Positions 6,571-17,591 of a DNA stretch of 17,819 bases are shown piece by piece. The notes below the pieces were generated by a model. That model had not been told where the DNA came from and ran no database searches. It saw only the letters and a program-made list of their open reading frames with translations. This DNA comes from a virus. Its lineage: Duplodnaviria > Heunggongvirae > Uroviricota > Caudoviricetes. A program made the position numbers and the translations under genes. Every line of letters begins with the position of its first letter. The first letter of the stretch is position 1. The DNA lies in the IMG/VR virus record IMGVR_UViG_2541047853_000002; one strand, written 5' to 3'.

Positions 6571-9500
6571 ATGGGTAAAGGCAGCAGTAAGGGGCATACC
6601 CCGCGCGAAGCGAAGGACAACCTGAAGTCCACGCAGCTGCTGAGTGTGATCGATGCCATCAGCGAAGGGCCGGTTGAAGGTCCGGTGGATGGATTAAAAA
6701 GCGTGCTGCTGAACAGTACGCCGGTGCTGGACACTGAGGGGAATACCAACATCTCCGGTGTCACGGTGGTGTTCCGTGCCGGTGAGCAGGAGCAGACACC
6801 GCCGGAGGGGTTTGAATCCTCCGGCTCCGAGACGGTGCTGGGTACGGAAGTGAAATATGACACGCCGATCACCCGCACCATTACGTCTGCAAACATCGAC
6901 CGTCTGCGCTTTACCTTCGGCGTGCAGGCACTGGTGGAAACCACCTCAAAGGGGGACCGGAATCCGTCGGAAGTCCGCCTGCTGGTTCAGATCCAGCGTA
7001 ATGGTGGCTGGGTGACGGAAAAAGACATCACCATTAAGGGCAAAACCACCTCGCAGTATCTGGCCTCGGTGGTGGTGGGTAACCTGCCGCCGCGCCCGTT
7101 CAATATACGGATGCGCAGGATGACGCCGGACAGCACCACAGACCAGCTGCAGAACAAAACGCTCTGGTCGTCATACACCGAAATCATCGATGTGAAACAG
7201 TGCTACCCGAACACGGCACTGGTCGGCGTGCAGGTGGATTCGGAGCAGTTCGGCAGCCAGCAGGTGAGCCGTAATTATCATCTGCGCGGGCGCATTCTGC
7301 AGGTGCCGTCGAACTATAACCCGCAGACGCGGCAATACAGCGGTATCTGGGACGGAACGTTTAAGCCAGCATACAGCAACAACATGGCCTGGTGTCTGTG
7401 GGATATGCTGACCCATCCGCGCTACGGCATGGGGAAACGTCTTGGTGCGGCGGATGTGGACAAATGGGCGCTGTATGTCATCGGCCAGCATTGCGATCAG
7501 TCGGTGCCGGACGGTTTTGGCGGCACAGAGCCGCGCATCACCTGTAATGCGTACCTGACCACACAGCGCAAGGCGTGGGATGTGCTCAGTGATTTCTGCT
7601 CTGCGATGCGCTGTATGCCGGTATGGAACGGGCAGACGCTGACGTTCGTGCAGGACCGACCGTCGGATAAGGTGTGGACCTATAACCGCAGTAATGTGGT
7701 GATGCCGGATGATGGTGCGCCGTTCCGCTACAGCTTCAGCGCCCTGAAGGACCGCCATAATGCCGTTGAGGTGAACTGGATTGACCCGAATAACGGCTGG
7801 GAGACGGCGACAGAGCTTGTGGAGGACACGCAGGCCATTGCCCGTTACGGTCGTAACGTCACGAAGATGGATGCTTTTGGCTGTACCAGCCGGGGGCAGG
7901 CACACCGCGCCGGGCTGTGGCTGATTAAAACAGAACTGCTGGAAACGCAGACCGTGGACTTCAGCGTGGGTGCCGAAGGGCTTCGCCATGTACCGGGCGA
8001 TGTCATTGAAATCTGCGATGATGACTATGCCGGTATCCGCACCGGCGGGCGCGTGCTGGCGGTAAACAGCCAGACCCGGACGCTGACGCTCGACCGTGAA
8101 ATCACGCTGCCATCTTCCGGCACCACGCTGATAAGCCTGGTTGACGGGCAGGGGAGTCCGGTCAGCGTGGAGGTTCAGTCCGTCACCGACGGCGTGAAGG
8201 TGAAAGTGAGCCGTGTTCCTGACGGCGTTGCTGAATACAGCGTATGGGGGCTGAAGCTGTCGACGTTGCGCCAGCGCCTGTTCCGCTGCGTGAGTATCCG
8301 TGAGAACGACGACGGCACGTATGCCATCACCGCCGTGCAGCATGTACCGGAAAAAGAGGCCATCGTGGATAACGGGGCGCACTTTGACGGCGACCAGAGC
8401 GGCACGGTAAATGGTGTCACGCCGCCAGCGGTGCAGCACCTGACCGCAGAAGTCACCGCAGACAGCGGGGAATACCAGGTGCTGGCGCGCTGGGACACGC
8501 CGAAGGTGGTGAAGGGCGTGAGCTTCCTGCTTCGCCTGACCGTGGCAGCGGATGACGGCCGTGAGCGGCTGGTCAGCACGGCCCGGACGACGGAAACCAC
8601 TTACCGCTTCACACAACTGGCTCTGGGGAACTACAGGCTGACAGTCCGGGCAGTAAATGCGTGGGGGCAGCAGGGCGATCCGGCGTCGGTATCGTTCCGG
8701 ATTGCCGCACCGGCAGCGCCGTCGCGGATTGAGCTGACGCCGGGCTATTTTCAGATAACCGCCACGCCGCATCTTGCGGTTTATGACCCGACGGTACAGT
8801 TTGAGTTCTGGTTCTCGGAAAAACGGATTGCGGATATCAGGCAGGTTGAAACCAGCGCGCGTTATCTTGGTACGGCACTGTACTGGATAGCCGCCAGTAT
8901 CAATATCAAACCGGGCCATGATTATTATTTTTACGTTCGCAGTGTGAACACCGTTGGCAAATCGGCATTCGTGGAGGCTGTCGGTCAGCCGAGTGATGAT
9001 GCATCAGGCTATCTGGATTTTTTCAAAGGCGAGATAGGGAAAACCCATCTGGCTCAGGAGCTGTGGACGCAGATTGATAACGGTCAGCTTGCGCCTGACC
9101 TGACTGAAATCAGGACGTCCATAACGGATGTCAGCAATGAAATAACACAGACCGTCAATAAGAAACTGGAAGACCAGAGTGCGGCAATCCAGCAGATACA
9201 GAAGGTTCAGGTTGATACAAATAATAACCTGAACAGCATGTGGGCAGTGAAGCTGCAGCAGATGCAGGACGGACGCCTTTATATTGCGGGTATCGGTGCC
9301 GGTATTGAGAACACCCCTGACGGCATGCAGAGTCAGGTGCTGCTGGCAGCAGACAGGATTGCGATGATTAATCCTGCGAATGGCAACACAAAGCCGATGT
9401 TTGTTGGTCAGGGCGATCAGATATTCATGAATGAAGTGTTCCTGAAACGCCTGACGGCCCCCACCATTACCAGCGGTGGCAGTCCTCCGGTATTTTCCCT

Positions 9501-10068
9501 GACATCAGACGGAAAGCTGACCGCTAAAAATGCGGATATCAGTGGTAGTGTGAATGCGAACTCAGGAACGCTCAACAATGTCACGATTAACCAGAACTGT
9601 ACGATTAAGGGCATGCTGGAGGCGACCCAGGTCAGAGGGGATTTCGTTAAAGCTGTATCAAAAGCCTTCCCGAAAAAAGTCGGTACGTGGGGTAACACGG
9701 AAACACCAAACGGTACGGTTACAGTCACCATCAGCGATGATCATAACTTTGACCGCCAGATTATTATTCCGCCCATTATTTTTAACGGTATAGCGTATGA
9801 CGATCCGGGGAGCGGAAATAACCCAGGAGGCACGCGATACACGGGTTATGGTTTTGAAGTTCGCAAAAACGGCGTATTAATCGCATCCAGAGAAACTAAA
9901 GGGGCCATTCCCGGTAGTTACAGTGCAGTTATTGATATGCCTAGTGGTGGTGGTAGCGTCACTCTGGAGTTTAAGATTTTCCAGAAAGGCAATCAGGGGG
10001 CAGGCAATATCACCGACTGTACGGTGATTGTGACCAAAAAAGCCGCTTCCGGCATCAGTATTCGTTGA
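6571..10068 (+). CDS. J: Central tail fibre / host specificity protein J (1165 aa)
   Basis: Very large ORF after I with RBS 'gagga'. Fibronectin type III-like segment (about 8400-8700: ...[27 protein letters not shown]). Size is similar to lambda gpJ (about 1132 aa). The C-terminal 300 aa or so has lower GC than the rest. Confidence 0.93.
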
Positions 10069-10137: not shown

Positions 10138-10737
10138 ATGCGTAAACTTTATGCCGCCATTTTGTCCGCAGCCATTTGTCTGGCCGTATCCGGTGCGCCT
10201 GCATGGGCATCTGAACATCAGTCCACGCTGAGCGCGGGGTATCTTCATGCCTCGACGAACGTTCCCGGCAGCGATGATCTTAACGGGATTAACGTGAAAT
10301 ACCGTTATGAGTTTACGGACACACTGGGGCTGGTGACGTCATTCAGCTATGCAGGAGACAAGAATCGCCAGCTTACCCGTTACAGCGATACCCGCTGGCA
10401 TGAAGATTCCGTTCGTAACCGCTGGTTCAGCGTGATGGCGGGGCCGTCTGTGCGCGTGAATGAATGGTTCAGCGCGTATGCGATGGCGGGTATGGCTTAC
10501 AGCCGTGTGTCGACTTTCTCCGGGGATTATCTCCGCGTAACTGACAACAAGGGGAAAACGCACGACGTGCTGACCGGAAGTGATGACGGTCGCCACAGCA
10601 ACACGTCTCTGGCGTGGGGGGCTGGCATGCAGTTTAACCCGACCGAATCCGTGGCCATTGATATTGCTTATGAAGGTTCCGGCAGTGGTGACTGGCGCAC
10701 TGACGGTTTCATCGTGGGTGTCGGTTATAAATTCTGA
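10138..10737 (+). CDS. lom: Lom outer-membrane beta-barrel protein (Ail/Lom/PagC/OmpX family), 199 aa
   Basis: Signal peptide ([24 protein letters not shown]) and a C-terminal aromatic residue (…GVGYKF) typical of outer-membrane beta-barrels. Sits between J and stf as in lambda. Own RBS 'gagagg', and flanked by terminators on both sides (moron-like). Confidence 0.88.
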
Positions 10738-10801: not shown

Positions 10802-13800
10802 ATGGCAGTAAAGATTTCAGGTGTACTGAAAGACGGCACAGGAAAACCGGTACAGAACTGCACAATCCAGCTGAAAGCAAAACGTAACAGCACCACGGTG
10901 GTGGTGAACACGCTGGCCTCAGAAAATCCGGATGAAGCCGGGCGTTACAGCATGGACGTTGAGTACGGTCAGTACAGCGTTATTCTGTTGGTGGAGGGAT
11001 TCCCGCCGTCACATGCCGGGACCATCACCGTGTATGAAGATTCCCGACCCGGTACGCTGAATGATTTTCTCGGTGCCATGACGGAGGATGATGCCCGTCC
11101 TGAGGCACTGCGCCGTTTTGAACTGATGGTGGAAGAGGTGGCGCGTAACGCGTCCGCGGTGGCACAGAACACGGCAGCCGCGAAGAAGTCAGCCAGCGAT
11201 GCCAGCACATCAGCCCGTGAGGCGGCAACCCATGCGACTGATGCTGCAGGCTCAGCACGCGCAGCCAGCACGTCAGCCGGACAGGCCGCGTCGTCGGCTC
11301 AGTCAGCATCTTCCAGCGCAGGAACGGCATCAACAAAGGCCAGTGAAGCATCGAAAAGTGCTGCTGCTGCAGAGTCCTCAAAAAGCGCGGCAGCTACCAG
11401 TGCCGGTGCGGCGAAAACGTCAGAAACGAATGCGGCAGCGTCACAACAATCAGCAGCCACTTCTGCATCCGCCGCGACCACGAAGGCGTCAGAAGCAGCC
11501 ACCTCAGCCCGGGATGCGGCGGCCTCAAAAGAGGCAGCGAAATCATCAGAAACGAACGCATCATCAAGCGCCAGTAGTGCCGCTTCCTCGGCAACGGCGG
11601 CAGGCAATTCCGCGAAGGCGGCAAAGACGTCTGAGACAAACGCCAGGTCTTCTGAAACGGCAGCGGGACAGAGCGCCTCGGCTGCGGCAGGCTCAAAAAC
11701 AGCGGCTGCGTCGTCTGCCAGTGCCGCGTCAACAAGTGCCGGGCAGGCCTCAGCCAGTGCCACCGCCGCCGGAAAATCGGCAGAAAGCGCCGCATCGTCT
11801 GCTTCAACAGCCACAACGAAGGCTGGCGAAGCCACTGAACAGGCCAGCGCAGCAGCAAGGTCTGCTTCCGCAGCGAAGACATCCGAGACGAACGCGAAAG
11901 CGTCGGAAACCAGCGCAGAATCCTCAAAAACGGCTGCCGCATCGTCCGCCAGTTCGGCGGCGTCATCGGCATCATCGGCGTCTGCTTCAAAAGATGAGGC
12001 GACCAGACAAGCGTCCGCAGCGAAGGGCAGCGCCACGACGGCATCCACGAAGGCGACAGAGGCAGCTGGCAGTGCGACGGCGGCAGCACAGAGCAAAAGT
12101 ACGGCGGAATCCGCGGCAACGCGCGCCGAGACAGCGGCAAAACGGGCAGAGGATATTGCATCCGCCGTGGCGCTTGAGGATGCAAGTACGACGAAAAAGG
12201 GGATAGTACAGCTCAGCAGTGCGACCAACAGTACGTCTGAAACGCTGGCGGCAACGCCAAAGGCAGTAAAATCAGCCTATGACAATGCAGAGAAACGTCT
12301 GCAGAAAGACCAGAACGGCGCTGATATACCCGATAAGGGACGCTTCCTGAACAACATTAACGCGGTCAGTAAAACAGACTTTGCTGATAAGCGTGGTATG
12401 CGTTATGTGCGGGTTAACGCTCCTGCAGGTGCAACATCTGGAAAATATTACCCTGTTGTTGTTATGCGTTCTGCTGGCTCAGTAAGCGAACTGGCATCAA
12501 GGGTCATTATCACCACGGCAACGCGAACCGCAGGCGATCCGATGAATAACTGCGAGTTTAACGGATTTGTTATGCCTGGTGGCTGGACTGACAGGGGGCG
12601 TTATGCTTATGGAATGTTCTGGCAATATCAAAACAATGAACGAGCCATCCACTCAATAATGATGAGTAATAAGGGCGATGATTTGCGCTCTGTGTTCTAT
12701 GTTGATGGCGCTGCTTTCCCTGTTTTTGCGTTTATCGAAGATGGCCTGTCAATATCCGCACCTGGTGCTGATCTCGTTGTTAATGATACGACCTATAAGT
12801 TTGGGGCAACAAATCCGGCGACTGAATGTATCGCGGCGGACGTTATCCTTGATTTTAAGAGTGGGCGTGGTTTTTATGAGTCTCATTCGTTAATCGTTAA
12901 CGATAACTTGTCGTGCAAAAAACTTTTTGCCACAGACGAAATTGTAGCGCGTGGTGGTAATCAGATTCGAATGATAGGTGGGGAGTATGGGGCATTATGG
13001 CGTAATGATGGCGCTAAAACTTACCTGCTGCTTACCAATCAAGGTGATGTTTATGGTGGCTGGAATACATTAAGACCGTTTGCTATTGATAACGCAACCG
13101 GCGAACTGGTTATTGGAACCAAACTGTCCGCAAGTCTGAACGGTAATGCATTAACAGCAACAAAGCTGCAAACGCCAAGACGGGTTTCTGGTGTTGAGTT
13201 TGATGGTTCCAAAGATATTACTTTAACCGCCGCGCATGTGGCTGCTTTTGCCAGAAGGGCAACGGATACATATGCCGATGCGGATGGTGGCGTTCCCTGG
13301 AATGCCGAATCAGGCGCTTATAATGTCACCCGCTCTGGCGACAGCTATATTCTGGTTAACTTCTATACCGGAGTCGGAAGTTGCCGGACCTTGCAGATGA
13401 AGGCGCATTACAGAAATGGTGGTCTGTTCTACCGTTCTTCAAGAGACGGTTATGGTTTTGAGGATGACTGGGCAGAAGTTTATACCTCGAAAAATCTTCC
13501 ACCAGAAAGCTACCCAGTCGGCGCACCAATCCCGTGGCCATCAGATACCGTTCCGTCTGGTTATGCCCTGATGCAGGGGCAGACTTTTGACAAATCTGCT
13601 TACCCGAAACTTGCAGCCGCTTATCCGTCAGGCGTGATCCCTGATATGCGTGGCTGGACGATTAAGGGCAAACCTGCCAGTGGTCGGGCCGTATTGTCTC
13701 AGGAACAGGACGGCATTAAATCGCATACCCACAGCGCCAGCGCATCCAGTACAGATTTGGGGACGAAAACCACATCGTCGTTTGATTACGGCACTAAATC

Positions 13801-14200
13801 CACGAATAACACTGGTGCGCATACCCATAGTTTAAGTGGCAGCACGAATGCAGCTGGTAATCACAGCCATAGAGATGGCCGTCGATTTAACCCCAGTGTT
13901 TTTAAAGATACTTATCAATATGGTTATACAAGCTCAGGTCAAAATACCTGGGGTGTACAAGGCTCAGTAGGTATGTCTACGGGGTGGTTAGCGAATACCA
14001 GTACAGATGGTAATCATAGCCATTCACTGTCCGGCACAGCAGCATCTGCAGGTGCACACGCGCATACTGTCGGTATTGGTGCTCATACGCACTCCGTTGC
14101 GATTGGTTCACATGGACACACCATCACCGTTAACGCTGCTGGTAACGCGGAAAACACCGTCAAAAACATCGCATTTAACTATATTGTGAGGCTTGCATAA
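10802..14200 (+). CDS. stf: Side tail fibre protein Stf (about 1132 aa from ATG 10802; the ORF track starts 2 codons upstream at GTG 10796)
   Basis: N-terminus [26 protein letters not shown] is typical of the lambdoid Stf tail-attachment domain. Followed by a long Ala/Ser/Thr-rich repetitive shaft, a conserved fibre motif ([27 protein letters not shown]), and a His-rich HxH-repeat C-terminus. RBS 'ggggtg' before ATG 10802. Stop overlaps the tfa start (TAATG). Confidence 0.9.
11150..12210 (+). repeat. Ala/Ser/Thr-rich low-complexity coding repeat in the stf shaft (GC about 70%)
   Basis: Recurring peptide units such as AAKTSETNA (four copies with small variations) and [10 protein letters not shown] tracts. 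This codon-biased GC-rich repeat produces long spurious ORFs in the other frames. Confidence 0.75.
13724..14125 (+). other. His-rich HxH repeat region of the Stf C-terminus (putative metal-coordinating fibre tip)
   Basis: Motifs [46 protein letters not shown] read from the translation. They resemble the HxH iron-binding repeats of the T4 gp37 distal tip. Confidence 0.55.
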
Positions 14201-14775
14201 TGGCATTCAGAATGAGTGAACAACCACGGACCATAAAAATTTATAATCTGCTGGCCGGAACTAATGAATTTATTGGTGAAGGTGACGCATATATTCCGCC
14301 TCATACAGGTCTGCCAGCAAACAGTACCGATATTGCACCACCAGATATTCCTGCTGGCTTTGTGGCTGTTTTCAACAGTGATGAGGCATCGTGGCATCTC
14401 GTTGAAGATCATCAGGGTAAAACGGTTTATGACGTAGCTTCCGGCGACGCGTTATTTATTTCTGAACTCGGTCCGTTACCGAAAAATGTTACCTGGTTAT
14501 CGCCGGAAGGGGAGTTTCAGAAGTGGAACGGCACAGCCTGGGTGAAGGATACGGAAGCAGAAAAACTGTTCCGGATCCGGGAGGCGGAAGAAACAAAAAA
14601 CAACCTGATGCAGGTAGCCAGTGAGCATATTGCGCCGCTTCAGGATGCTGCAGATCTGGAAATTGCAACGGAGGAAGAAATCTCGTTGCTGGAAGCATGG
14701 AAAAAGTATCGGGTATTGCTGAACCGTGTTGATACGTCAACTGCACAGGATATTGAATGGCCAGCACTGCCGTAG
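14200..14775 (+). CDS. tfa: Tail fibre assembly protein Tfa (191 aa)
   Basis: ORF directly coupled to stf. The C-terminal motif [36 protein letters not shown] is characteristic of the Tfa/gp38-like assembly chaperones of lambdoid and P2-like phages. Confidence 0.9.
14620..14742 (+). repeat. tfa 3' repeat, copy 1 (direct repeat partner of 17391-17513)
   Basis: About 123 bp with roughly 88% identity to 17391-17513 in the same orientation (aligned by eye, about 15 mismatches). Confidence 0.8.
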
Positions 14776-14872
14776 GGTAAAACATATAAATTCTATAATT
14801 AGATGTATCTTTCCATTTACGGCAAGGAAGGGGGCTTGGAAGACGTAAAGCATCTCACACCGAGATTATTTT

Positions 14873-15463
14873 TTATATGTCAGGTGTCTGAAGTTTTGCT
14901 TTGGCTCTTAAAATGGTTTGCCGCGAGGTTTTGAATTCCCGGGCAATGGCACTTATACTTACACCTGACTTAATTCGTTCGAATACCACCTGTTTCTGTT
15001 CTTCATTTAACACAGGTGGTCGACCAAAACGTTTCCCTGCGCCGCGGGCTCTTACTATCCCGGAATGAGTGCGTTCAAGTAAAAGGTCTCGTTCAAATTC
15101 AGCGACTGCTGAAATTACGTGCATCATCATTTTTCCTGTTGGACTGGTCAGGTCAATGCCCCCCAATGCTAAGCAATGCACTCTGATACCTGTTTCGGTC
15201 AGTTGTTCCACTGTTTTCCTGATATCCATTGCATTACAACCAAGGCGATCCAGTTTTGTCACAATCAATTGATCACCACATTTCAGGCGAGCAAGCAACC
15301 GGTTAAAACCAGGACGCTCACTGGTTGCTGCTGAGCCGCTAATGTGTTCTTCGATTATTTGCTGAGGTTTGATTTTAAAACCTGCACTTTCGATTTCCCG
15401 GCGTTGATTTTCGATGGTCTGATCCAGCGTTGATATCCGACAGTAAGCAAAAATTCGAGACAT
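14873..15463 (-). CDS. pin: Serine recombinase of the DNA-invertase family (Pin/Gin/Hin-like; PinR/PinQ-type), 196 aa
   Basis: N-terminal catalytic motif ([12 protein letters not shown], Ser nucleophile), the resolvase/invertase catalytic domain, and a C-terminal helix-turn-helix ([21 protein letters not shown]). Convergent with tfa. I recall this as closely matching the Rac/Qin prophage invertases of E. coli, but I could not verify by search. Confidence 0.88.
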
Positions 15464-15600
15464 AGTGAGACTCTATACGAAATTGGTGTTCATATCATAA
15501 TGCATCTCAGAAAATAATTTTGATTATTTTTGTGCATATTTGTATGTACACGTTCGAAAATAAACGAATGCGTATGCAACCCCGTAATTTTGGTGAGACC

Positions 15601-15614
15601 CAAAATCGATTTTG
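15601..15614. promoter_or_regulatory. Perfect 14-bp palindrome CAAAATCGATTTTG, nested with a second inverted repeat, in the pin upstream region
   Basis: Read directly. The second inverted repeat is AATTTTGG (15586-15593) against CCAAAAT (15599-15605). Located about 140 bp upstream of the pin start codon. Function unknown. Confidence 0.25.
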
Positions 15615-15779
15615 TGAAAAATGGCTTTAACTCGGTTTGTTTTTCGAGTTCCGGGCGGACTCAAGGAAGAAGAATAGTGTTGCGTGTTATTTTAACCAGA
15701 TTTCAAGTTGTTTGATCGTGGAAAAGTGGAGCAAAATGTTGTTAAAGTGGAAAAATGATAAAAAAGTAAGTTTATTATA

Positions 15780-16013
15780 TTACATTTTACCATTTAAATT
15801 TTGGTTGTCTTTAAGAACTGATATCGCTGTTTGTAATAATTCTTTGTTATCCAGCCATGATTTTTTCTTTATGTTTCCTTCAATGTAATCAAGCAATGTT
15901 CTGGTATTGATAGGTCTTCCCTGTTTTGCTACTTCCACTACAGCATCCCCTAGGATAATTCTTACTTCAGGAAGCTGCGCAGGGAACCACTTTAGGGTGT
16001 CTTTTGATTTCAT
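15780..16013 (-). CDS. ydfK: Small prophage protein resembling YdfK/YnaE (cold-shock-induced in E. coli Rac/Qin); 77 aa from ATG 16013, 88 aa if ATG 16046 is used
   Basis: The translation MKSKDTLKWFPAQLPEVRIILGDAVVEVAKQGRPINTRTLLDYIEGNIKKK... matches my recollection of YdfK/YnaE. Lies just upstream of pin on the same strand, as in Rac and Qin. Identity is from memory, not a search. Confidence 0.6.
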   Translation of the reverse strand: MKSKDTLKWFPAQLPEVRIILGDAVVEVAKQGRPINTRTLLDYIEGNIKKKSWLDNKELLQTAISVLKDNQNLNGKM

Positions 16014-16510
16014 GAAGATATTCCTTAAAATATTATTGATTTTCATTGCGATATTGTATGTCTGATTCAGGATATGTTGACTTATACATCGGTTTTGTCT
16101 GGGTTATTGGATATGCCAATCCCTAATTTTATTAGGGCATGACTAAAAATGCTGAATATGATAAGGAGAGAAGTGATTATCAGTATGCTGTTCATATAGC
16201 CTCGAATTAGTAATGTGTTATATATGATATAGTTGACAATTTTTATCCTGGGTGTTCTTAAAGTTCGTAGATAAACATTGTCGTTTCAGGTATACAGGAA
16301 TGCTAACAGGTGGCGGCAAAAATCAGGCGGTTTATGGCGCAAGCTGAAGTGGCAACTGCAAACTATCTTATGCAGAGACTCTACACGGATTGGGTTTAAA
16401 AGTATACATAGATAACAGTTTTTATCTGAAGAAGAAAAATATCAAGGTGATATAGCCTATATGCCTATGATGCGGAGGAATGAATGTGATGGGAGTGATG
16501 TATCTGAATA

Positions 16511-16555
16511 GTTGAAAAACCGCAGACACGCCTTATGCAAGAACGTGCTGCGGTT
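16511..16555 (-). terminator. Rho-independent terminator downstream of the methyltransferase gene (minus strand)
   Basis: Inverted repeat 'aaccgcagacacg' (16518-16530) against 'cgtgctgcggtt' (16544-16555). On the minus strand the stem is followed by 'tttttcaac'. It begins 6 nt after the methyltransferase stop. Confidence 0.5.
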
Positions 16556-16560
16556 GGATG

Positions 16561-17229
16561 CTATTTTTTCCCTGAAGCGGAAAACATTACTACAGTACCT
16601 TGAACCTTGGTTTTAACATTCTCGAAATGCTCTGAGAGTATATGTGTTAAGCCTTCTTCGGAATCTTTTGTGTTTGAAAAGATGCCTTTCTGATTGTAAA
16701 TGCGCATCAGTTTTTGACCGAAGCTATTGTGCACAACTCCATCGCCAAGAATTGTGGCTCCGTATAGAGTTCCATCGTCAGTTAAGGCCTGCGCCGCATT
16801 GCGTATTACACAGCTTTTTGTAGATATATTTCCAGGCAGGCAGTGAAGAAGGTAAAACATGGAAATGGAATCAAATTGACCATGTAACGCCGCGGGATAA
16901 GGTTCAAAAACATCATGGTTAATTTTATGTTTAATTTTTGATTCCCCAGCCCTTGTAGATGCCGCGTTCAGGCTAGCTTCGTTCAAATCCATTAAAGATA
17001 TCAGACTACTCTCAGGTACGTGAGTAAGGTAAAACCCAGTTCCAACACCAATATCCAGATGGTTGTTACCTAAATGTTCCAGAAAGTGTGGAAGAAGGTG
17101 TTCCTTTGTAGGACATCCCCATGCAAGCCGATTTGATACTCCCAAAACCCACCAGTCATAAAGCTTTAGGGTAAGTGGTGTGTAAATTTTAGCCCCATCA
17201 TCTGTGTTTTTTTTCATTAATTTCACCAT
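16561..17229 (-). CDS. Class I SAM-dependent methyltransferase (222 aa), target unknown
   Basis: Rossmann-fold motif I (LDIGVGTGFY), an acidic residue after beta-2 (LMDLNE), and a motif-II-like HDVF. No (D/N/S)PP(Y/F/W) motif, so it is probably not a DNA amino-methyltransferase. Low-GC gene. It may correspond to the ybcY-type methyltransferase found near tfa remnants in the E. coli DLP12 prophage (recollection only). Confidence 0.75.
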   Translation of the reverse strand: MVKLMKKNTDDGAKIYTPLTLKLYDWWVLGVSNRLAWGCPTKEHLLPHFLEHLGNNHLDIGVGTGFYLTHVPESSLISLMDLNEASLNAASTRAGESKIKHKINHDVFEPYPAALHGQFDSISMFYLLHCLPGNISTKSCVIRNAAQALTDDGTLYGATILGDGVVHNSFGQKLMRIYNQKGIFSNTKDSEEGLTHILSEHFENVKTKVQGTVVMFSASGKK

Positions 17230-17285: not shown

Positions 17286-17591
17286 ATGCTGCCGCAGCAT
17301 AGCGATATTGAAATAGCCTGGTATGCTTCGATACAGCAGGAGCCGAATGGCTGGAAGACCGTCACCACACAGTTCTACATCCAGGAATTCAGTGAGTATA
17401 TTGCGCCACTGCAGGATGCTGTAGATCTGGAAATCGCAACGGAGGAAGAAAGATCGTTGCTGGAGGCATGGAATAAATATCGGGTATTGTTGAATCGAGT
17501 TGATACATCAGTAGCTCTGGGTATGAAGCTGTTTGTAACTCATGTTACAGTAACAGTCATTACTATCTCGAAGGTGCAAAATGTATATTGA
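17286..17591 (+). pseudogene. Truncated, degenerate tail-fibre-assembly (tfa-like) remnant
   Basis: The 101-aa ORF contains [40 protein letters not shown], about 90% identical to the Tfa C-terminus at 14620-14742. The N-terminal 38 aa and the tail after VDTS do not match Tfa, and it is far shorter than the 191-aa Tfa. Confidence 0.6.
17391..17513 (+). repeat. tfa 3' repeat, copy 2 (direct repeat partner of 14620-14742)
   Basis: See copy 1. Same orientation, roughly 88% nucleotide identity. Confidence 0.8.

Follow-up and report, generated by a model that had tools for sequence, protein, structure and literature searches.

It is quite probable that, in the side tail fibre gene stf of this prophage, a protein domain boundary and a joint between constant and variable parts of the gene coincide at positions 12150-12360, that exchange at the joint occurs by homologous recombination and that the specificity modules beyond it are swapped as internal cassettes. 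The window, the whole stretch of 17,819 nucleotides that was analysed, is the tail region of a Rac-like lambdoid prophage. Its open reading frames and Pfam matches gave the gene order J, lom, stf, tfa, and annotated relatives are alike. Compared across 11700-12900, the stfR genes of K-12 MG1655 and strain 600468 were 98.7% and 100% identical to the window, respectively, and the Stf gene of PhiR34_1 was 99.9% identical in nucleotides, junction included. When the two halves of stf were searched separately, the best matches of both were the same phages (PhiR34_1, Kati, mEp332 and ev099), indicating that this particular combination is itself widespread. The N-terminal half was present in 235 phage records, nearly all of them, by record name, Escherichia, Stx-converting, lambda or Enterobacteria phages, and the distal half had DNA-level matches in 44, myoviruses among them. 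The Stf proteins of Ur-lambda, according to work cited in PMC7291167, form trimeric fibres on virions and speed adsorption. The features of the region are collected in Table 1.

Table 1. Features of the stf region, in window coordinates.
Feature	Position	Strand	Evidence
stf, side tail fibre gene (Rac/StfR type), 1132 aa	10802-14200	+	ORF, translation, Pfam phage_tail_N, Gp34_trimer and Collar
PfN tail-attachment domain, aa 1-134	10802-11203	+	PF08400, E 1.6e-71
Ala/Ser/Thr-rich shaft, about 48 heptads in a single register (xAxxSAx), GC-rich plateau	11177-12181	+	Heptad analysis, GC2 0.82
PF03406 Phage_fiber_2 repeat, aa 462-502, containing the 27-residue motif	12185-12307	+	E 1.2e-22
Junction zone, staircase of similarity ends	12261-12360	+	Nucleotide-level comparison
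Module B, variable middle/distal shaft (Rac type)	12290-13480	+	Other sequence in PhiR26_1, PhiR29_1, O157, 22F46, 55989 and lambda types
17-letter protein box, colinear with the Mu gix crossover site in S (codon ~170, ~nt 12356)	12314-12370	+	Mu S alignment, Mu G-segment boundary annotation, gix sequence; no gix-like site in the window
T4 gp34-like trimerisation domain, aa 663-762, in Module B	12788-13087	+	PF21446
Block C, conserved collar and proximal needle of T4 gp37-like tip	13480-13840	+	PF07484 Collar; 2xgf match, E 2.4e-86
Block D, hypervariable insert between the third and fourth of seven HxH motifs	13840-14014	+	Similarity gaps 13840-13999/14032 in most relatives
Block E, conserved stf 3' end and tfa (tfa 14200-14775)	14014-14775	+	PF02413 Caudo_TAP, E 1.3e-42
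pin, PinR/PinQ-type serine invertase, apparently orphan	14873-15463	-	Resolvase and HTH_7; PinQ/PinR-type annotation in PhiR34_1 and Qin

The sequence-only reading had reported about 73% GC in the shaft against 33-48% beyond it. The contrast was reproduced in the sampled 60-mers (70% at 11701-11760, 35% at 12601-12660); its size was not, as the 60-mers differ by 35 points and the segment means by about 16 (0.629 for the shaft at 11201-12151 vs. 0.471 at 12302-13480). The drop is real under windowed analysis, GC falling in 200-nt windows from 0.64 (12000-12199) to 0.495 (12200-12399) and 0.425 (12600-12799). With 600-nt flanks, the step of 0.163 at nt 12259 was the largest in the window and exceeded the 99th percentile of codon-shuffled controls (0.122). 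When the flanks were cut to 300 nt, a step of 0.153 at 12173 ranked second in the window and was below the codon-shuffled maximum of 0.180. The 27-residue motif at which the break had been placed was located at aa 467-493 (nt 12200-12280), within the proposed interval of 12150-12300. A GC step in J at 8745 was rejected as a second example; similarity to lambda J holds at 95% to 9067 and the breakpoint is elsewhere.

The GC drop was then divided by codon position, with GC2 contributing 74%, GC3 24% and GC1 unchanged. The raw drop occurs at the end of the shaft because Ala, Ser and Thr codons force GC2 there to 0.82, compared with 0.47 after the shaft, and the GC predicted from the amino acids alone accounts for 75-78% of the drop. 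About 75% of the break is therefore the amino-acid composition of the heptad coiled-coil shaft, not foreign origin. Only GC3 carries an origin-type signal, and its shift is modest. GC3 is 0.61 over 10802-11200 and 0.54-0.68, mostly 0.61-0.68, in the upstream tail genes; it falls from 0.55 to 0.41 across the joint and stays at 0.41-0.43 from 12302 through tfa. The change point was placed at nt 12368 (support interval 12227-12428) and was reached in 0 of 1000 permutations. A residual synonymous shift was left after amino-acid control (CMH p = 1.4e-5), although this small shift could in part come from codon constraints that differ between helical and beta-structured parts of the protein. Furthermore, low distal GC3 was common to all ten relatives measured, whatever their distal module, which argues for a long-standing separate gene pool rather than recent acquisition in this prophage.

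The GC-rich plateau (~11180-12180) matches the extent of the heptad array. The shaft spans aa 126-460, about 335 residues, with Ala at position 1 in 47 of 48 heptads, Ser at position 4 in 37 and Ala at position 5 in 34, and its protein sequence has a 3.5-residue Fourier peak. Apart from a 9-nt unit in 2.4 copies, Tandem Repeats Finder reported no tandem array in the shaft DNA; the periodicity is at the protein level. Single-sequence AF2 modelling of aa 367-633 predicted one helix at aa 368-462 (pLDDT 65-92); everywhere beyond segment residue ~91 the pLDDT was below 50 and the model was left uninterpreted. The lambda shaft is shorter by exactly 105 aa, or 15 heptads, and experiments showed the homologous PCoil region to be a trimeric coiled coil, with lengths that differ in steps of seven (PMC3368898).

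The PF03406 repeat was unreported in the Pfam scan of full-length Stf, probably because the shaft is compositionally biased, and was recovered when a 70-aa segment was scanned alone (79.7 bits vs. a gathering cut-off of 22). The motif within it is an island shared by 28 tail-fibre PHROG families, at varied positions, and is present in relatives as one to three tandem copies. Two records matched the linker DNA alone, at 12190-12354 or 12215-12283, with 84-87% identity (H119, H120). A literature search for the literal motif strings gave no match.

The 11700-12900 region was matched by 4017 E. coli records, 1251 of which cover at least 80% of it. Junction endpoints were defined as the ends of BLAST HSPs in a spread sample of 60 E. 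coli records and in 18 fetched loci. Similarity ended within the 28 nt at 12261-12288 in 33 of the 60 sampled records and at 12331-12360 in another four (37/60 total), and HSP ends in relatives fell at 12270-12271, 12282-12283, 12288, 12330 and 12360. In relatives, the motif is followed by one of at least five unrelated distal modules. A phage-plasmid fibre that differs at its N-terminus and matches the window only in shaft and motif also breaks at 12288. The Turner and OHT76 types have their junction at 12350-12360 and are still recognisable homologues beyond 12360. Loss of similarity at the joint can also arise by divergence instead of exchange. Nevertheless, similarity is lost at 12261-12360 in many independent relatives, and at the sequence level the proposed mosaic junction immediately 3' of the conserved motif was confirmed independently of the composition data. 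Neither a uniform GC profile nor constant co-occurrence of both halves with the same relatives, the outcomes named as arguing against mosaicism, was seen. One hit restricted to the right half (H85) was rejected as a reciprocal exchange, since it stems from a deletion in the Qin prophage, by which stf was fused at 12334 with a terminase fragment.

If the GC break were a mere by-product of the end of the Ala/Ser-rich shaft, there would be no evolutionary junction at all. The coincidence of plateau and heptad array, the share of the drop reproduced by amino-acid composition, the 74% contribution of GC2 and the flat GC1 all agree with this. However, the GC3 shift at the same position is significant, and about two-thirds of the shaft-matching E. 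coli records lose similarity less than 100 nt past the motif and continue into unrelated modules, which leaves this explanation scarcely credible.

Beyond the joint, the gene is a series of alternating blocks. By tblastn, protein-level relatives of Module B occur in 1279 records, mostly T4-like, with rV5-like and FelixO1-like myoviruses also present. Block C is 86-96% identical in most relatives, including those in which 12290-13480 is unrelated, and Block E is 93-98% identical in most, whichever Module B they carry. Block D is the sole stretch that aligned poorly with T4 gp37 in 2xgf and, by analogy with the published description of 2XGF (PMC7291167), is probably the receptor-contacting head. 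The pin gene lies 98 bp downstream of tfa. A partial copy of tfa in direct orientation was observed at 17286-17591.

The distal half of stf, tfa and possibly the downstream cassette had been proposed to be a separate acquisition. As a single foreign block taken up by this prophage lineage, they would account for the uniformly low GC3 from 12302 through tfa and for the Qin prophage, which carries 12334-15500 colinearly except for the hypervariable 13840-14013. Such a block is nevertheless very unlikely. At least three further junctions lie within it: 13480-13840 and 14014-14762 are 86-96% identical in relatives whose 12290-13480 is unrelated, and the head block varies separately. The low distal GC3 is the same in all ten measured relatives. 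Moreover, the presence of the pin cassette (14780-16520) is uncoupled from the type of distal module, since EL361 has an O157-type module with pin and PhiR26_1 is without pin, and co-acquisition of this cassette with the distal half was not borne out.

The adjacent invertase gene raises another possibility, that the joint is the fossil of Pin/Gin-type site-specific recombination at a crossover site in the fibre gene, with pin as the responsible or residual enzyme. In the model attributed to Sandmeier, invertases reportedly drive fibre shuffling, as in the Mu G, P1 C, e14 P and p15B Min segments. Several observations fit: a serine invertase gene adjoins the fibre genes; the alignment with Mu S 109-172 stops exactly at the Mu gix site; and the Turner/OHT76 junction and the GC3 change point fall at the gix-equivalent position. 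In addition, phi458 keeps an inverted alternative fibre fragment, starting from the NGADI box, beside an invertase. De Paepe et al. considered ancient stf exchanges to be probably invertase-driven (PMC3945230), which counts for this explanation. However, sites of the gix/hix type with up to three mismatches were absent from the window and from the loci of 18 relatives, under a pattern that recovered both Mu gix sites, and the colinear window sequence, TTCCTGAACAACATTAACGCGG, is unlike gix. Of the 37 sampled junctions, 33 are at the end of PF03406, 70-95 nt before the gix-equivalent position. By its ORF list the window has no inverted alternative cassette, its sole additional tfa copy being partial and direct, and there are relatives with the same kind of junction that lack the pin cassette. 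On balance, an invertase origin of the joint is improbable. Two candidate sites were rejected: a single 1-mismatch match to the gix core at 16602 is at chance level (0.6 expected), and the 21-nt inverted repeat 12315-12335/14707-14727 is only 76% complementary and has no resemblance to gix.

A mixed history was also considered, in which the Rac-type stf-tfa-pin arrangement is a decayed, one-cassette relative of Mu G. Position ~12356, as the former crossover point, would then still mark a second tier of natural junctions (12331-12360) and the GC3 change at 12368, and the main tier at 12261-12288, at the end of PF03406, would be separate and due to homologous recombination. On the same reading, the orphan PinR might still recombine quasi-sites with those of other prophages on rare occasions. 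The reading as a whole is doubtful.

Exchange at the joint by homologous recombination is the preferred explanation. The trimeric alpha-helical coiled-coil shaft ends at about aa 460, where the raw GC drops, and the constant/variable joint lies some 80-180 nt beyond it, in the PF03406 repeat and then the NGADIP box. These two elements form a DNA-level island in otherwise unrelated tail-fibre genes, which may serve as a foothold for homologous recombination of the phage Red type or by RecA, so that one tail-attachment and shaft part comes to carry various distal cassettes. Two further islands, the collar (13480-13840) and the stf 3' end with tfa (14014-14775), bracket 12290-13480 and the head at 13840-14014, and would thus allow the specificity modules to be swapped as internal cassettes. 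The distal region would draw on a gene pool common to lower-GC phages (T4-, Mu- and P2-like), hence the modest GC3 drop from the joint onward. The composition split, the heptad array, the clustered junctions, the alternative distal modules and the homologies were observed directly; how the modules recombined, and which way they were transferred, is what we infer from them. Homologous recombination between lambda and Rac stf/tfa occurs at ~2e-6 and is mainly Red-dependent (PMC3945230). The same study by De Paepe et al. found no recombination hotspot among 12 lambda-Rac recombinants (PMC3945230); junctions may therefore cluster at the joint because functional chimeras were selected, not because crossover is preferred there.

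The swap point is ordinary, already known and already in engineering use. Haggard-Ljungquist in 1992 and Sandmeier in 1992 and 1994, as cited in PMC3945230, reportedly established that tail-fibre genes are mosaics exchanged among unrelated phages. Lambda STF chimeras have been built at the joint after AATPKAVK (PMC11338833). In an engineered lambda-P2 STF the fusion point, lambda R393, is eight residues past AATPKAVK, which by residue count is ~nt 12295 here. The practical value of the analysis is methodological, and the biology adds little beyond the textbook. About three-quarters of a raw intragenic GC break can be protein composition, and codon-position or amino-acid-matched controls are therefore needed before foreign origin is inferred. 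Going by the conserved islands and variable cassettes mapped here, specificity is likely to be determined by the small head cassette at 13840-14014 rather than by the distal half as a whole, which bears on host-range prediction and on the engineering of Rac-type fibres.

Among known systems, the closest are K-12 Rac StfR/TfaR/PinR and PhiR34_1 Stf, for which no functionally relevant difference from the window was found. PhiR34_1 has the same J-lom-stf-tfa-pin order, and the Qin prophage the same stf-tfa-pin order. Stf/Tfa of lambda (Ur-lambda) likewise consists of a PfN domain, heptad shaft, PF03406 motif, gp37-like tip and Tfa. However, an unrelated module (beginning VVMDETNRK) follows AATPKAVK in lambda, and similarity resumes only at 13520 and in tfa.

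In Mu, residues 109-172 of S align to Stf 458-521 (PDB 5yvq, 8ju3), covering the motif and the NGADIP box. The boundary between constant and variable parts of S/S' is at the same place, and genes for tail-fibre assembly and a serine invertase come next, as in the window. Unlike the window, Mu G has gix-type crossover sites and a second, inverted cassette, and S has no counterpart of the N-terminal anchor or the coiled-coil shaft; the window's pin, in turn, is on the opposite strand, unlike the Mu arrangement. The P1 C, e14 P and p15B Min invertible segments were grouped with Mu G in this comparison.

The collagen-like tail fibres EPclA/B of EHEC prophages (PfN-PCoil-Col-Pf2-PfC) share with the window PfN and an Ala/Ser-rich trimeric coiled coil that varies in sevens, and in them Pf2 (PF03406) is likewise the joint between modules (PMC3368898). 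The window differs from them in having no collagen domain, a shaft of 335 aa vs. 116 aa and a gp34/gp37-like end in place of PfC. The T4 long tail fibre, with gp34 and the gp37 tip (PDB 4UXE/5NXF, 2XGF), shares with it the gp34-like trimerisation domain, and the C-terminal 231 aa of Stf align to the gp37 tip, seven HxH motifs included, with unrelated head inserts between HxH 3 and 4. Unlike in T4, the gp34- and gp37-like modules of the window are fused in one polypeptide after a lambdoid anchor.

A lambdoid prophage tail module lies in the window, and its leading genes are V/G/H/M/L/K/I as judged from ORFs and Pfam matches. Identity of the stf region to that of phage PhiR34_1 is 99.9%. Over nucleotides 11700-12900 it is 98.7% to the stfR annotated in the Rac prophage of E. 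coli K-12, and it reaches 100% with some other E. coli strains. The stf gene is therefore one that was annotated long ago.

Coordinates of tail genes and of the blocks that make up the distal part of stf
Feature	Position (nt)	Strand	Remarks
J	6571-10068		3' of the V/G/H/M/L/K/I genes
lom	10138-10737		between J and stf
stf	10802-14200		side tail fibre gene
tfa	14200-14775		3' of stf
pin	14873-15463	minus	serine invertase
Variable module	12290-13480		T4 gp34-like trimerisation domain inside
Collar	13480-13840		86-96% conserved, most relatives
Hypervariable block	13840-14014
stf 3' end + tfa	14014-14775		93-98% conserved

The sequence-only reading had placed a sharp GC drop within stf at 12150-12300, and this drop is borne out by sliding windows, segment means and 600-nt flanks. 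The profile is not uniform: 200-nt windows fall from 0.64 (12000-12199) through 0.495 (12200-12399) to 0.425 (12600-12799), and averages over whole segments are 0.629 (shaft, 11201-12151) and 0.471 (12302-13480). The size of the drop had been exaggerated by the choice of two 60-mers, which have 70% and 35% GC when recomputed. Measured with 600-nt flanks, the step of 0.163 at 12259 is the biggest in the window, above the 99th percentile of codon-shuffled controls (0.122); when the flanks are 300 nt, it ranks second, behind one in J, and is within the codon-shuffled maximum. The break was correctly assigned to a conserved peptide, which was located at aa 467-493 (nt 12200-12280). The step in J (8600-9700) lies at ~8745, measures 0.177 with 300-nt flanks and is accompanied by a fall in GC3 from 0.74 to 0.54; the similarity breakpoint of that gene is at a different position. 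The receptor of this J is probably other than LamB.

From shaft to distal part, GC1 changes from 0.539 to 0.532, GC2 from 0.817 to 0.466 and GC3 from 0.530 to 0.415, so that GC2 accounts for ~74% of the drop and GC3 for ~24%. When each codon was given the average GC of all codons for the same amino acid, 75% of the drop was reproduced with the codon usage of the upstream tail genes and 78% with that of stf itself. The drop is mostly one of amino-acid composition because aa 126-460 form an Ala/Ser heptad coiled coil of ~48 heptads in a single register. One heptad position is Ala in 47 of 48, a second is Ser in 37 and a third is Ala in 34; the Fourier spectrum has a sharp peak at 3.5 residues. 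Single-sequence AlphaFold2 predicted a single helix for aa 368-462 (pLDDT 65-92), stopping where the motif starts; the remainder of the model was of low confidence and was left out of the interpretation. In keeping with the heptads, the lambda shaft is shorter by exactly 105 residues, or 15 heptads. The coiled coil thus makes up the GC-rich plateau, which ends on the right at a protein-domain boundary. Long ORFs of 335, 309 and 263 aa also cross the shaft (11199-12228) in other frames and on the complementary strand; these look like artefacts of periodic, GC-rich, stop-poor codons, and ORFs of that kind are annotated in public records (lambda orf206b, phi458 Orf45).

Synonymous sites also shift. 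GC3 falls from 0.553 on the 5' side of the junction to 0.421 on the 3' side (Fisher p = 2e-5), and the shift persists when stratified by amino acid (Cochran-Mantel-Haenszel p = 1.4e-5). By maximum likelihood, GC3 changes at nt 12368 (2-log-unit support interval 12227-12428), with a likelihood that none of 1000 permutations reached. GC3 is 0.61-0.68 in most upstream tail genes (full range 0.54-0.68) and 0.43 in tfa. The same pattern was found in all ten relatives measured, whatever the distal module (N part 0.47-0.55, distal part 0.39-0.47), and low distal GC3 looks like a long-standing trait of the distal-module gene pool, not a sign of recent acquisition here.

The N half (10802-12200) matched 235 phage records, by organism name only nearly all Escherichia, Stx-converting, lambda or Enterobacteria phages, and the distal half (12300-14200) had just 44 matches, among them myoviruses and phage 9g. 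The halves do not always occur with the same relatives: among 4017 E. coli complete-genome records matching 11700-12900, at least 80% was covered in only 1251. Of 60 such matches sampled at even spacing, 19 spanned the junction, 33 lost similarity at 12261-12288 and four at 12331-12360; the remainder were one right-half-only match and three fragments, two confined to the motif region. Local BLAST of the window against 18 fetched relatives' loci was consistent, with endpoints at 12270-12271 (lambda, 22F46, ST131), 12282-12283 (O157, EL361, PhiR26_1), 12288 (55989, phi458, pAPSLC), 12330 (PhiR29_1) and 12360 (OHT76). Relatives are near-identical through AAGGCAGTAAAA (KAVK), after which similarity is suddenly lost in a staircase. 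The distal modules found 3' of the motif in relatives are of at least five other kinds. The pAPSLC fibre has another N-terminal anchor, yet shares the shaft and motif and breaks at 12288. With neither a uniform GC profile nor constant pairing of the two halves observed, both proposed grounds for rejecting mosaicism fall away, and the mosaic junction is real.

The 111-kb plasmid pAPSLC-111K carries phage tail genes and is apparently a phage-plasmid; its 1341-aa fibre (L018, 3112-7137) has an unrelated N-terminus (MWYREGTITF...), followed by a heptad shaft and PF03406 joint that share 88% of their DNA sequence with the window (11335-12288), then a 55989/phi458-type distal module. In the ETEC1701 Qin prophage (L010, 5996-6001), a truncated terminase gene is joined straight to stf at nt 12334 of the window, which falls in the NGADIPDK box, with no obvious microhomology at the join. 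A 26-nt repeat family coding AAKTSETNA has six copies at 11177-11916, the intervals between them being multiples of 21 nt, the length of a heptad. PhiR70_1 similarity stops at 11643, exactly at one copy, beyond which this phage has another distal module without PF03406; mEp460 megablast similarity stops at ~11637. The breakpoint at 11643 is a second class of junction, within the shaft.

Scanned alone, the motif segment is Pfam PF03406 (Phage_fiber_2, E 1.2e-22), which was not reported in the full-length Stf scan, and it matches 28 PHROG tail-fibre families at widely differing profile positions. The unit is single in the window and present in one to three tandem copies, with a 44-residue period, in relatives; it is doubled or tripled in the stf of O157, EL361, PhiR26_1 and 2017.02. 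The motif and the stretch following it align to residues 109-172 of Mu tail fibre S (PDB 5yvq, 8ju3), stopping at the G-segment boundary annotated at S codon ~170, where the Mu gix crossover site TTATCCAAAACCTCGGTTTACAGGAA codes IQNLGLQE; the colinear window position is ~nt 12356.

The possibility was considered that the junctions arose by invertase-mediated exchange. This rival reading draws on the adjoining pin gene and the homology to the Mu Sc/Sv boundary; the minor tier of junctions at 12331-12360 and the GC3 change point are compatible with an old invertase boundary. However, a search that recovers both Mu gix sites found no gix-type sites in the window or the 18 relatives' loci, and 33 of the 37 junctions in the sample precede the gix-equivalent position by 70-95 nt. 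No crossover sites or invertible segment for the PinR/PinQ-type invertase were recognisable in the whole window, and the enzyme is apparently an orphan. Homologous recombination in conserved islands around variable cassettes is the best-supported model; the islands would recombine and the cassettes between them would be exchanged. Recombinants of lambda with Rac stf/tfa were scored at ~2e-6 per lysogenised cell and were mostly Red-dependent, with no hotspot in 12 sequenced (De Paepe et al., PMC3945230); selection for chimeras that function may thus also contribute to the clustering seen in nature.

The distal half had been taken as one acquired unit together with tfa and possibly the downstream cassette, which over-reaches. 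It is itself mosaic, with variable stretches (12290-13480, 13840-14014) alternating with conserved blocks, the last of which includes tfa. Relatives of the variable module at protein level occur in 1279 phage records, most of them T4-like, rV5-like or FelixO1-like. The last 231 residues of Stf align with the receptor-binding tip of T4 gp37 (2xgf, E 2.4e-86); the sole poorly aligned stretch is the hypervariable block, between HxH motifs 3 and 4 of seven, which by analogy with the published 2XGF description (PMC7291167) is probably the receptor-contacting head. The seven HxH motifs (13700-14150) equal in number the described His-coordinated iron sites of the gp37 needle.

The segment 14780-16520, containing pin, a YnaE/YdfK-like gene and small ORFs, occurs in Turner, PhiR34_1, Qin and EL361 but not in PhiR26_1, 55989 or ST131, independently of distal module type. 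In relatives without pin, tfa directly adjoins the YbcY-like methyltransferase (16561-17229, minus strand), and the segment therefore behaves as an insertion/deletion. Downstream of pin, 15500-16300 is very AT-rich (GC 0.27-0.39) and holds the YnaE/YdfK-like small gene (15780-16046, minus strand); another compositional step lies by it at ~15340-15480. After the methyltransferase comes a partial second tfa copy (17286-17591, a 101-aa ORF), with a direct repeat (14608-14753 and 17379-17524) of 84% identity. The original proposal was correct in substance, although based on a mostly misleading signal and over-extended to tfa and the downstream cassette.

The stf swap point is already known. Classically, tail-fibre modules are horizontally exchanged among lambda, Mu, P1, P2 and T4, and Haggard-Ljungquist in 1992 and Sandmeier in 1992 and 1994 reportedly described such exchange with conserved motifs at the boundaries. 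In lambda Stf and K-12 StfR, the domains PfN, PCoil and Pf2 have been named, their modular combinations being ascribed to prophage recombination (Ghosh et al., PMC3368898). Moreover, a lambda STF-P2 gpH fusion was made at lambda R393 (Brödel et al., PMC11338833), eight residues past AATPKAVK; by residue count from AATPKAVK, its equivalent in the window is ~nt 12295, within the natural junction zone.
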